Source: Thermococcus sp. JdFR-02 (lineage in GTDB: Archaea > Methanobacteriota_B > Thermococci > Thermococcales > Thermococcaceae). Taken from it: a DNA stretch of 64,000 nucleotides. Shown in pieces: positions 35,562 through 48,331 of the stretch. The notes beneath the pieces were generated by a model that was given only the letters and a program-made list of their open reading frames with translations, was not told where the DNA came from and searched no databases. The stretch spans positions 32,001-96,000 of the forward strand of contig MTLP01000032.1 in the NCBI GenBank assembly GCA_002009975.1, given 5' to 3'. The position numbers were made by a program, and so were the translations under genes. Each line of letters starts with the position of its first letter. Position 1 is the stretch's first letter.

Positions 35562-35969
35562 TCAAAGCTTAACAATAGTCAGCTCTATTCCAGCATCCTC
35601 CTTGTATTGCTGCATTTCATAAACTTCCACTCCGCTTATCTCCATCACAATTCCGCAAAATTCTATCTGGTCTCCAAGCTCGGTTATCCTTGGCACCTCT
35701 AAGACCTTCATGCAATTGACCTTTGTTAAAGCGGTCTTAAGCATTGACAGTGCCAAGTCCAGATCCACAAACTCTTCGTTAAGGAACTTGCAGACATCTT
35801 CAATGATGATGCATTTCAAGCCCGATGAGTTTATTTTTCCCAGTTGTGCTTTCCTTATAAACTCTAAAGGCTTCATTGACTCAACATCATAACCTAAACT
35901 TTCCATGAAAGCTTTAAATTTTGAAAGATGTTTAGAGGGAAGAAAATAGAGCTTTGAAGCGCTCGTCAT
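35562..35969 (-). CDS. Hypothetical protein
   Basis: 135 aa; ATGA overlap with the methyltransferase stop, GGTGAGG RBS. Confidence 0.65.
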   Translation of the reverse strand: MTSASKLYFLPSKHLSKFKAFMESLGYDVESMKPLEFIRKAQLGKINSSGLKCIIIEDVCKFLNEEFVDLDLALSMLKTALTKVNCMKVLEVPRITELGDQIEFCGIVMEISGVEVYEMQQYKEDAGIELTIVKL

Positions 35970-46154: not shown

Positions 46155-48331
46155 GTACCTCCTAATACGTTAATCCTTCTATATAACCTCGAAAGCTTAA
46201 TTAATGTATCTTCAGAATCTATAGCACTTTCTAAAAATATCAAACTCCTATTAAGTTCCCTTTCAAAGATCTCAATCTCTGTAGGCTCGATCTCGTAATT
46301 ATATGTCTCATCGTAGGGAAAAACAAAGAGATCATAGATGATAGCCCTATCTTTATTAGGAGCTTTTCTAAGTACCCTTCCCCTTCTTTGTATAAATTCT
46401 CTCGGATTTGTGCTACTTGCCAAAATTATTGCTGAGTCGCTTGCTGGAATATCAACGCCTTCATCCAGACATTTAATTGACAATAGAAACTTGACAGCTC
46501 CTTCCTCAAAAAGACGCAAATGTTCAATCTTTTTCTCCTTTTCTTGGATACCTAAGTATTTTAGGAACTTATATCCTCTTTTTGCCATTTCCTTTGCCAA
46601 GATATCTAACTGCTCCGTATCTTGGCAATAAATAAGGCATCTACCCAACTTATCTCTATTTTTCTCAATGATTTCTATTGTTTTCTGGATTTTATTCTCT
46701 GCTTTTTTGATTATTTTAGCTCGCTTTAGTAATAAGTTCTGGAGTAACATTGCCTCACTCTTGTCCTCCAGAATATCAAGAGCTTCCTTAAGTGAAGTGT
46801 CTTCTGACAAGTTGTACTTGGCAAGTATCCGTTTATAAGTACTGTAAATTTTTCTTGAGATCTCTTTGTATTGATATAATTCTTCATCTGTAAGAGGGAC
46901 TATTTCAATGTGATATTCATAGGGAACTATCCTTTCATCCCTAATTGCATCTTTTAGAGAATATTCATAAATTATGCCTCCAAAATAATCCATAATCATT
47001 TTAGTTCCGACATCATCCCAGATCCTTATAGGAGTGGCACTTAATCCAAGTCGTCCCAAAGCGGGATCAAGTTCTTTCATGATTTCTCTGCTCTTTCGAG
47101 CACCAAGCCTATGAACTTCATCCACTACAAGAACATATTGCCCTCTAAGCTCCTGATTTATGACTTCTATGAATGTATCTGAACTAGCAGAACGAATTGT
47201 TGCTATTATGAATTTTTTACCATGTTTCTTTTGATATGCCCATATAAACTCTCTCAAAAGGACCTTCCAGTTTGGATTTTGACTTGAACAAATTATTATT
47301 GGTACATCCACAAAAACTCTTTTGATTTCCCTTATCCACTGGATTACAAGCTCTTTTGATGGAACCAATAATACTACAAATGTATCTTCAGGCAGGCGCT
47401 TGACTGCAAATAACGCTGTTAAAGTTTTTCCACTACCAGTTGCCATAGAGAGAATACCACACCTATTATTTTTATACCATTTTTGAATTGCCTCTTCTTG
47501 ATGCTGCCATAATGTAATCTGCGATTTGGAAGCTGGATATTCAACAAAAACTTCTTCTGGATCAACTATTTCCTTAATCTCTGGAGGTGCAATTTTTATT
47601 AGTTCTCTTTTTACAGCCTCAGGGATTGTGTAAGTTCTCACTTTAGGGTTTGCATTGTTCCACGTAGCCCAAAATTCTTCCTCAGCTGAAGTTATATATT
47701 CTTTCTCAGCTTCTATCCAGCTTCTATGAACAGAAAAGGACTCTGCATTGTCAATCCATCCCCTTGCAGTTTCATTTATTGATCCTTCAATATGTAATTT
47801 GTTTCCGTTAAAATCCTCAAAAATCGCAAATTTACTATGCCAGATTGCTTCACTCTTGGTATCCTCATATATGATATCAATGTCATGGGGTATGGCTAAC
47901 CTAATTTCCAGTTTTCCCTTTGAAACCAACCATGCAAGAACCTCAAGTCTCTTTCGTACTATAAGATCTTCAAGATTTATATTCTTAAGTTCTTCCAAGA
48001 GTTTTTGTTCGATTATCTCTGGAGGTGTTTTTAATCCTCTGTTAATTGCTTCAACATCTTCTTTAGATAACAAAACTCCTGTTATAAGATACATTTTTTC
48101 ACCTTGATTAATAAAATAAGCAAGACCCCTTGCTGCTGCAGCTAATACTGAAGAAGAAAAGTACCCACTTGCTCTATAATAATATTTGGAATTTGCTATC
48201 ACCGGAATAAAAAATTCAGTGAGGGTGTTATCTAAGGAAGTATACCTTTTTTTCAATTCTAATCTTTTGAAGTTTCCATCAGACTTAAATGGTGTTATCA
48301 AAATTATCCCCACTGAGAAAATAGAGTTCAT
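46151..48331 (-). CDS. pbeA: PLD (HKD) nuclease fused to SF2 DEAD/H helicase (PbeA-like)
   Basis: RASGYFSSS, WHSKFAIFED...EGSINET, MATGSGKT, DEVH, LSATP, DEGVDIP, QRRGRVLR; start uncertain (ATG 48331 or TTG 48301). Confidence 0.78.
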   Translation of the reverse strand: MNSIFSVGIILITPFKSDGNFKRLELKKRYTSLDNTLTEFFIPVIANSKYYYRASGYFSSSVLAAAARGLAYFINQGEKMYLITGVLLSKEDVEAINRGLKTPPEIIEQKLLEELKNINLEDLIVRKRLEVLAWLVSKGKLEIRLAIPHDIDIIYEDTKSEAIWHSKFAIFEDFNGNKLHIEGSINETARGWIDNAESFSVHRSWIEAEKEYITSAEEEFWATWNNANPKVRTYTIPEAVKRELIKIAPPEIKEIVDPEEVFVEYPASKSQITLWQHQEEAIQKWYKNNRCGILSMATGSGKTLTALFAVKRLPEDTFVVLLVPSKELVIQWIREIKRVFVDVPIIICSSQNPNWKVLLREFIWAYQKKHGKKFIIATIRSASSDTFIEVINQELRGQYVLVVDEVHRLGARKSREIMKELDPALGRLGLSATPIRIWDDVGTKMIMDYFGGIIYEYSLKDAIRDERIVPYEYHIEIVPLTDEELYQYKEISRKIYSTYKRILAKYNLSEDTSLKEALDILEDKSEAMLLQNLLLKRAKIIKKAENKIQKTIEIIEKNRDKLGRCLIYCQDTEQLDILAKEMAKRGYKFLKYLGIQEKEKKIEHLRLFEEGAVKFLLSIKCLDEGVDIPASDSAIILASSTNPREFIQRRGRVLRKAPNKDRAIIYDLFVFPYDETYNYEIEPTEIEIFERELNRSLIFLESAIDSEDTLIKLSRLYRRINVLGGT

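Follow-up and report, generated by a model that had tools for sequence, protein, structure and literature searches.

The four-gene module PbeABCD has been characterised in Haloterrigena jeotgali A29 together with the phosphorothioate (PT) modification genes dndCDEA: dndCDEA-pbeABCD confers protection from virus SNJ1, Pbe lacking dnd neither harms the host nor protects it, and Pbe defence needed, in this one characterised case, the modification of host DNA (PMC6459918). The same paper counts 320 solitary PbeAC out of 553, 155 of these 320 having a methylase within 10 kb, and suggests a pairing with methylation. Pbe was also equated with the CxC ATP-binding cassette (ABC) ATPase systems, described as Dnd-independent in many taxa and sometimes found with cytosine methylases, and the HKD domain was argued to imply DNA cleavage (PMC10853773). 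That Pbe can exist in the absence of dnd, perhaps alongside a methylase, is therefore a concept already present in the 2019 and 2024 papers, both of which also raise the question of how Pbe/CxC systems discriminate self from non-self when there is no PT. We report here on a window of 64 kb (the whole stretch of DNA analysed) from Thermococcus sp. JdFR-02, where a PbeABCD module lies tail to tail with a DUF1156/DUF499/PglZ/DUF7680 module related to bacteriophage exclusion (BREX) systems. We read this locus, with about an even chance of being right, as two complete defence modules inherited or transferred as one block, each most likely working alone and forming at most successive layers.

On the BREX side, one close description is that of the Type-3 BREX-related (BR) systems of Rakesh & Krishnan (2026, PMC12839542), which are given a standalone PglZ, a BrxHII-like helicase and iSTAND. 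Our module 1 shares with them the DUF499 AAA+ ATPase and the DUF1156 N6-methyltransferase, the pair that identifies DUF499-centred BR systems, as well as a separate-gene, putatively active PglZ; it differs in that the locus encodes no BrxHII-like helicase, that an iSTAND is not recognisable, and that DUF7680 is present. With Type-4 BREX, the relatives of module 1 share a short BrxL (no Lon) and PglZ, and the best, weak NCBIfam match of our PglZ is BREX_PglZ_4; the methylase is, however, of the DUF1156 type instead of a PAPS-reductase PT module, DUF499 stands in place of BrxC/DUF6079, and the BrxL that characterises BREX Types 1 and 4 is absent here. Type-2 BR (DUF499-DUF3780-DUF1156-PLD-helicase) and the PADLOC Hma system have in common with our locus HmaC, HmaB and an HKD-helicase nearby, but here the latter is a genuine PbeA, encoded together with PbeB-D in a separate, convergent operon, there is no DUF3780, and no HmaA is adjacent to HmaB and HmaC.

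Module 2 has the same order as in H. jeotgali A29 (PMC6459918), i.e., HKD-helicase, small protein, coiled-coil ABC ATPase and small DndE-like protein. The linked dndCDEA of PT-based Dnd-Pbe defence is missing here genome-wide, and the neighbouring modification gene is instead an N6-methyladenine (m6A) methyltransferase within a BREX-related module. With the CxC ABC-ATPase systems, which occur without Dnd, it shares the apex-cysteine ABC ATPase, the cognate DndE, the HKD-superfamily 2 (SF2) helicase and the small protein (PMC10853773). The cysteine motif is CSVC (C-x-x-C) in our case, and the methylase partners named in the accessible text of that paper are cytosine C5/N4 enzymes with MTaX1, whereas the neighbouring methylase here is an adenine enzyme of the DUF1156 type that accompanies DUF499 and PglZ. 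Pbe paired with a BrxL-less DUF499/PglZ/DUF7680 module was not found in our literature search, although two reviews mention both PbeA and PglZ, and the supplements of PMC12839542, PMC10853773 and PMC6459918 may list it.

Sample and gene content of the two modules

The window lies on contig C4 of the JdFR-02 genome (G000; 2.36 Mb, 44 contigs, 99.99% complete). Open reading frames (ORFs) were listed with their translations, and families were called by profile scans against Pfam, PADLOC and NCBIfam. The eight ORFs that a preliminary description of this DNA had assigned to the two modules are found where it had placed them (Table 1), module 1 covering 35562-43508 and module 2 covering 43505-48379. 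Their arrangement agrees as well: ORFs and motifs bear out a DPPY methyltransferase divergent, across the 82-bp spacer, from a plus-strand DUF499-PglZ-small gene operon, and the sequence confirms that this operon converges on a minus-strand operon of four genes, the TTAA at 43505-43508 forming the overlapping stop codons of both. DUF499 and PglZ overlap by 4 nt, PglZ and the 126-aa gene by 14 nt. The same description had proposed a search for the two modules together in other genomes; the block does recur, in two other Thermococcales genomes (G094 and G062) and on one metagenome contig (L024).

Table 1. Features of the two modules and of the genes that accompany them, in window coordinates.
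Feature	Position	Strand	Evidence or remark
135-aa protein	35562..35969	-	start overlaps methyltransferase stop by 4 nt; no family match
DUF1156 N6-adenine DNA methyltransferase, HmaB-like, 951 aa	35966..38821	-	Pfam, PADLOC, DPPY
Divergent intergenic region, 82 bp	38822..38903	.	98.8% identity in G094
DUF499 AAA+ ATPase, HmaC-like, BrxC relative, 1108 aa	38904..42230	+	Pfam, PADLOC
Standalone PglZ, alkaline-phosphatase superfamily, 304 aa (putative)	42227..43141	+	weak hidden Markov model (HMM) match and homologues
DUF7680 protein, 126 aa, terminal gene of plus-strand operon	43128..43508	+	Pfam
PbeD, DndE-fold (predicted), 121 aa	43505..43870	-	AlphaFold model and Foldseek
PbeC, DndD-like coiled-coil ABC ATPase, 678 aa	43867..45903	-	PADLOC and motifs
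PbeB, 85 aa (putative)	45897..46154	-	weak HMM matches and position between PbeA and PbeC
PbeA, HKD nuclease fused to SF2 helicase	46151..48379	-	PADLOC, TIGR04095, domains, motifs
EVE-domain protein, 163 aa	32600..33091	-	Pfam EVE 90 bits; 82-86% in G094 and G062 loci
352-aa protein, possibly DUF3800-like	33108..34166	-	no Pfam match; 71% identity in G062
178-aa protein	34361..34897	-	weak matches only; 66-67% identity in G094 and G062
226-aa protein	34878..35558	-	no family match; 95% identity in G094, not found in G062

In module 1, the methyltransferase matches Pfam DUF1156 at 25.8 bits (cut-off 24), PADLOC HmaB at 233 bits and NCBIfam DUF1156_antiphage at 172 bits, the last far under the equivalog cut-off; its DPPY motif is at residue 543. 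DUF499 scores 124 bits with Pfam and 215 bits with PADLOC HmaC. The PglZ call starts from 18 bits in Pfam, under the cut-off of 25, and 20 bits with NCBIfam BREX_PglZ_4; it is supported by the precomputed PF08665 found on 15 of its 26 word-index homologues. In the homologue alignment, D94, T124, T126, D224-H225 and H281 are invariant, and we take these positions to be the metal ligands and the nucleophile.

The 126-aa gene had been presented as a DUF3780 component, a label that we ruled out: the only family matched is DUF7680 (Pfam, 44 bits), and the DUF3780 model (PF12635) finds nothing genome-wide at E ≤ 1. The AlphaFold model of this protein has a mean predicted local distance difference test score (pLDDT) of 93.7 and combines five strands and five helices in an arrangement that is not P-loop-like; it gives no Foldseek match at E ≤ 0.001, and its best VIA-align Z of 6.8 concerns four-helix bundles only. 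No paper naming DUF7680 was found in the literature search. As for the 135-aa protein, it is 98.5% identical in G094 and 88% in G062, with weaker homologues 3' of the methyltransferase in two related loci (26% in L014, 32% in L027); judging from this distribution, we consider it a conserved accessory of the BREX-related module. In the search for iSTAND, neither the 135-aa nor the 126-aa protein had a family match, the former giving only Atlas leads below 0.9 to KaiC-like clusters.

All four parts of a PbeABCD/CxC ABC-ATPase system are present in module 2, as the HKD-helicase, small protein, ABC ATPase and DndE-fold protein were each found. The PbeABCD-like order announced in the preliminary description thus stands, with 694 bits (PbeA) and 251 bits (PbeC) in PADLOC, E = 6e-5 for PbeB and the DndE fold of PbeD. 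PbeA is 742 aa long from a TTG at 48379, the likely start being the ATG at 48331 (726 aa). It reaches 363 bits with TIGR04095 and only 55 bits with PADLOC PLD_Helicase, has PLDc_2, ResIII, DEAD and Helicase_C domains, and carries the motifs HSKFAIFED at 181 with ..GSIN, GSGKT at 315 and DEVH at 420; its N-terminus matches NF042964 (phospholipD_antiphage) at 1e-24. PbeC also scores 214 bits with DndD, has a Walker A motif (GDNGFGKT) at residue 40 and carries the CSVC motif at 339-342 of 678, in the middle of the coiled coil; this is a C-x-x-C, not a literal C-x-C.

The two small proteins required other means. PbeD gives no HMM match by itself; it has 37 relatives among 1.84 billion representatives, and Pfam DndE matches none of the 36 aligned members of the family; with the family profile, the best match among 177,635 PDB sequences is nevertheless DndE (E = 0.04). 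Its AlphaFold model (pLDDT 95.2) retrieves DndE in all of the top 17 Foldseek rows (4lrv, 5wtu, 7x4e), with a probability of 0.80-1.00 and a template modelling (TM) score of 0.52-0.67, so the predicted structure identifies the 121-aa protein as the DndE-fold PbeD. Besides its PADLOC match, PbeB gives Pfam Sp-DndD at E = 0.018; both are weak. There is also a weak resemblance between PbeB and the C-terminal part of DndC (PADLOC DndC positions 397-458; Pfam Sp-DndD), and the DndC-like protein of another Pbe locus (L106, 16342-17946) has the same Sp-DndD stretch at its C-terminus, which suggests that PbeB may be a detached DndC tail docking on the DndD-like ATPase.

The parent family of module 1 and its missing BrxL

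Relatives of module 1 were anchored on the PglZ alignment, at least five coming from reference genomes and at least 37 from metagenomes, to which two Thermococcales regions of 20 kb were added, making 44 loci; all of them were searched by tblastn with the window proteins. In 23 of the 44, a 475-aa gene is inserted between DUF499 and PglZ, and its product, scanned in L015 and L017, consists of BrxL_N plus BrxL_ATPase with no Lon domain. DUF499 directly abuts PglZ in seven others (L022, L023, L024, L025, L026, L027 and L044), L025 being the same sequence as L023 (99.995%). As for the rest, L018, a distant locus of bacterial origin, has its genes in a different order, L048 and L059 have no matches upstream, and 11 begin too near PglZ to judge. 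The short BrxL is, therefore, present in 23 of the 30 loci that show the DUF499/PglZ junction, and this tally points to a canonical layout of a methylase divergent from DUF499 - short BrxL - short PglZ - DUF7680, often with a small gene 3' of the methylase. Module 1 of the window is a derivative of this small archaeal family in which BrxL has been lost; no BrxL match (PF13337) was obtained anywhere in the genome. Two of the BrxL-less copies, L027 and L044, come from outside Thermococcales.

The BrxL-bearing loci are among L014-L017, L028-L049 and L058. Since BrxL is called specific to Type-1/4 BREX and Type-3 BR is given a BrxHII helicase (PMC12839542), the BrxL plus DUF7680 family, which fits none of the types in the accessible text of that paper exactly, may be an undescribed BR subtype; an archaeal DUF499 family with these two components blurs the published boundary between BREX and BR. 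DUF7680 was detected in three of 301 sampled Thermoproteota, all three already among the known loci.

It had also been remarked that the SNF2 helicase usual for DUF499 systems is missing. This holds for the locus, as no SNF2/BrxHII-type helicase is encoded in 32600-48379 apart from PbeA, but the part lacking with respect to the relatives is the short BrxL, and no ORF of SNF2 size is present in the eleven related loci listed. The only strong HmaA match in the genome (312 bits) is an SNF2 helicase of a different system, on contig C25 beside another methylase. We rejected this helicase as a partner encoded in trans for the DUF499 module: it belongs to a DrmD/DrmMI/DruE-like cluster of deviant G+C content, G094 contains no close orthologue of it (28%, 40 bits), and G062 offers just one relative, at 33%. 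C25 itself (21 kb; L012 and L013) carries a DrmD/BrxHII-like SNF2 helicase of 974 aa, a DrmMI/type-IIG-like methylase of 1382 aa and a DruE-like helicase of 1661 aa, and its G+C content is 43.7%, where the genome has about 37.5%. This is a defence cluster in its own right, which may sit on a mobile element or on a contig binned by mistake. Nine other contigs (C18, C22, C24, C26, C32, C37, C38, C43 and C44) also have 42-49% G+C.

A Pbe module without dnd genes

The preliminary description had seen no dnd genes in the window, and our search extends their absence to all 44 contigs. With the DndC model, the best match in the genome reaches 30.7 bits, for a cut-off of 290.4, and lies in a 628-aa PUA-PAPS reductase-ferredoxin protein; the other PAPS_reduct matches are weak and come from open frames of 285-374 aa. 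PbeC is the only DndD-like gene of the genome, with no second dndD, and Pfam DndE finds nothing in it at E ≤ 1. A hidden dnd cluster is ruled out by these DndC, DndD, DndE and PAPS_reduct searches of the whole genome. The search for DUF4007 (SspB) was silent in the genome, but it was also silent in the controls. DndC stayed under the cut-off in the five other PbeA-bearing genomes tested too, so that dnd is absent in six out of six.

Recurrence of the pairing and histories of the two halves

Standalone PglZ was found in three of 99 Thermococcales genomes (G000, G094 and G062), and so was full-length PbeA. The other 14 PbeA matches in this order (at E ≤ 1e-20) cover the helicase part only, in frames of about 450-510 aa and with 30-36% identity. 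In G094, G062 and L024, the whole block is colinear with that of the window from the EVE gene (32600) to PbeA (48347), PbeD coming right after DUF7680, while a PbeD-family HMM finds nothing downstream of DUF7680 outside the Thermococcales clade. We also looked from the Pbe side, with 14 PbeA-PbeC loci (six in four other genomes of the class, eight in seven of 401 sampled Thermoproteota): DUF499, PglZ or DUF1156 is near PbeA in none of them, within the sequence at hand, several contigs being short. The neighbours of these loci are PAPS-reductase/DndC-type proteins (L106, L110), a class-V aminotransferase (L104), N6_N4 methylases (L091, L107), HNH proteins (L108, L110, L111), and DUF1232 proteins or a Schlafen/AlbA_2 fusion. 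On plasmids, relatives of PbeA occur on 31 records and those of DUF499 on 95, with no accession common to the 30 PbeA and 60 DUF499 records among the matches listed. From these surveys within the order, outside the clade, on the Pbe side and on plasmids, it follows that the pairing is confined, as sampled, to one lineage of one island.

The two halves of the block do not have the same history. In the BR half, the window, G094 and L024 show a DNA identity per segment of 93-94% with each other and of about 77% with G062. The Pbe allele of G094 is also that of L024 (91-95%); from it, PbeD, PbeC and PbeB of the window differ strongly, with an identity of only 60-75% (76-87% for PbeA), and are more distant than those of G062. 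The drop in identity sits at the DUF7680|PbeD boundary, which places a recombination breakpoint exactly at the boundary of the modules. Synonymous divergence (dS) is 0.20-0.27 for DUF499, PglZ and DUF7680, 0.87 for PbeA, 1.6 for PbeD and saturated for PbeC. From the contrast in identity and dS, Pbe has been exchanged as a cassette, with the junction kept. The N-terminal half of the methyltransferase varies too, at 77-83% identity within this trio of window, G094 and L024. Between the last two it is 78%, yet they have a Pbe allele in common, so the variation of the methyltransferase does not track PbeC/PbeD; a covariation of the two, considered as a sign of shared specificity, was not seen.

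Neither half is decaying, the ratio of nonsynonymous to synonymous divergence (dN/dS) being 0.02-0.14 for every gene with unsaturated dS (0.02-0.07 for DUF499, 0.10 for PbeC, 0.04-0.11 for PbeD and 0.07 for PbeA). None of the eight genes is broken in the window or in G094. In G062 (L023, contig C3 of this genome; 7453-9484 and 14222-17382), the reading of the methyltransferase is split over two frames, as is that of PbeC; in L024 (12599-14786), that of PbeA is split over three. The breaks of G062 fall at a G-run and an A9 run and so may be assembly errors; more generally, the frame breaks of L023 and L024 may reflect genuine inactivation, phase variation or an error of the assembly. A joint decay of the two G062 genes, considered as a hint of coupling, was given no weight, since the breaks are at homopolymers and that L025 is the same sequence.

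Independent modules or a hybrid system

With two modules side by side, the activities and the independence of each module would be those predicted from the sequences. The DPPY methyltransferase would put m6A on host DNA, and the DUF499 ATPase, standalone PglZ, DUF7680 and 135-aa protein would form a sensing and exclusion complex; for its part, the PbeC-PbeD pair (DndD-like/DndE-like) would scan DNA, PbeA would supply ATP-driven translocation and HKD cleavage, and PbeB would be a small regulator. Independence is suggested by the completeness of both modules by their own family definitions, by the convergence of the operons, which are thus separately transcribed, by the different histories of the halves, with a methyltransferase that does not track Pbe, and by the defence-island setting. 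It also fits with Pbe pairing elsewhere with other partners or none, with the BrxL-less copies of module 1 outside Thermococcales, and with the solitary PbeAC (PMC6459918) and Dnd-independent CxC systems (PMC10853773) already described. Several observations, however, weigh against it. The gaps of the two modules are exactly complementary, module 1 being without the BrxL kept by 23 relatives and module 2 without a modification partner. Full-length PbeA occurs in the same three of 99 genomes as standalone PglZ, adjacent to the PglZ module, and Pbe lies directly 3' of DUF7680 in all four BrxL-less Thermococcales copies with enough sequence, versus none of 24 other loci (16 bearing BrxL, with at least 700 bp of sequence, and eight of undecided BrxL state). 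The stop-to-stop junction persisted through the change of Pbe allele, and purifying selection on Pbe (dN/dS 0.04-0.11) in dnd-less genomes argues that Pbe works without PT.

These observations point rather to a true hybrid, a reading we find possible but rather doubtful. The BREX-related module would have swapped its BrxL motor for Pbe, the m6A of the DUF1156 enzyme would be the self mark in place of PT, and PbeABCD would be the ATP-driven helicase-nuclease arm, which either takes its licence from methylated host DNA or is guided to unmethylated DNA by the DUF499-PglZ complex. The preliminary description had proposed such an arrangement, and its module identities, the absence of dnd and the recurring block all stand, while the evidence on Pbe as the restriction arm of the methylation module is mixed. 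In its favour, BrxL is absent from the Thermococcales clade, dnd from all six PbeA genomes, and the scan of ORFs between 28629 and 50657 found no methyltransferase other than the DUF1156 enzyme. SF2 helicases serve in the BREX types that have no BrxL (PMC12839542), PbeA combines HKD and helicase in the same layout as Type-2 BR helicases, with its N-terminal match to NF042964, and a Pbe-methylase pairing was proposed by Xiong et al. (PMC6459918). However, all four copies come from one event, so the effective n is 1, and the pairing is repeated neither in the 14 other Pbe loci nor among the plasmid matches listed. The operons are convergent, the breakpoint falls at the module boundary, the methyltransferase does not covary with PbeC/PbeD, and the setting is a defence island, with AbiE, EVE and MNT genes surrounding the modules. 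L027 and L044, also without BrxL, show that the module can lose it elsewhere, their contigs ending 202 and 348 bp past the module, and BrxL is missing from 24% of Type-1 BREX (PMC12839542). If, against our present leaning, a Thermococcales lineage did exchange the BrxL motor of a BREX-related m6A module for a Dnd-type PbeABCD, nature would have swapped modules between the BREX and Dnd worlds, and a machine known only as a reader of PT genomes would be licensed by m6A.

The same tight and conserved adjacency could also mean a layered backup, where module 1 is autonomous with PglZ as its effector, and Pbe is an auxiliary or abortive-infection effector that does not read the methyl mark and is fired when phage inhibitors disable module 1. 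Auxiliary nucleases lie beside BREX/BR cores in at least 4363 taxa (PMC12839542), and PbeB-like small proteins have been proposed as negative regulators released by viral factors (PMC10853773). Its trigger is, nevertheless, purely hypothetical, the single-lineage caveat applies here too, and the HKD effectors listed in the accessible text of PMC12839542 are confined to BrxL fusions and Type-2 BR helicases, with no CxC/Pbe; we deem this backup improbable. Finally, one half could be inert, with Pbe silent for want of PT, an option raised for solitary Pbe (PMC6459918), or with the BrxL-less module as a methylation-only remnant. The broken frames of G062 (methyltransferase and PbeC) and of L024 (PbeA) would agree with inertness; on the other hand, the catalytic motifs are intact, like all eight genes in the window and G094, every gene with unsaturated dS has a dN/dS of 0.02-0.14, and the homopolymer breaks of G062 may come from the assembly, so that we see very little chance of it. 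Whichever reading applies, purifying selection acts on Pbe here in three genomes that have no dnd and belong to a genetically tractable order, and the locus is of interest because it is a clean, testable case for Pbe function without PT.

Genes around the two modules

Beyond the methylase and the 135-aa gene, on their 3' side, four genes on the same strand (32600-35558, minus strand) move with the block. This minus-strand run starts with the methyltransferase and closes with the EVE gene, which belongs to the conserved block; EVE proteins have previously been noted near DUF499 systems (PMC12839542). The 352-aa protein has an Atlas feature score of 0.96 to DUF3800 clusters, which we keep as a lead only. 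Across the whole 64-kb window, no tRNA gene was detected by ARAGORN and no Rfam family at the gathering score.

Just past PbeA, an MNT-type nucleotidyltransferase of 218 aa is encoded at 48527-49183 (minus strand), with an overlapping ORF of 110 aa; the MNT stretch (48527-49430) is missing at the matching place in G094, where homology restarts at window positions 49711-49914. At the other end, a complete AbiE toxin-antitoxin pair directly adjoins the conserved block at 30927-32499 (minus strand), with AbiEii of 317 aa (PADLOC, 323 bits) and AbiEi of 209 aa (254 bits). The AbiE, EVE and MNT-like genes around the modules mark the region as a defence island.

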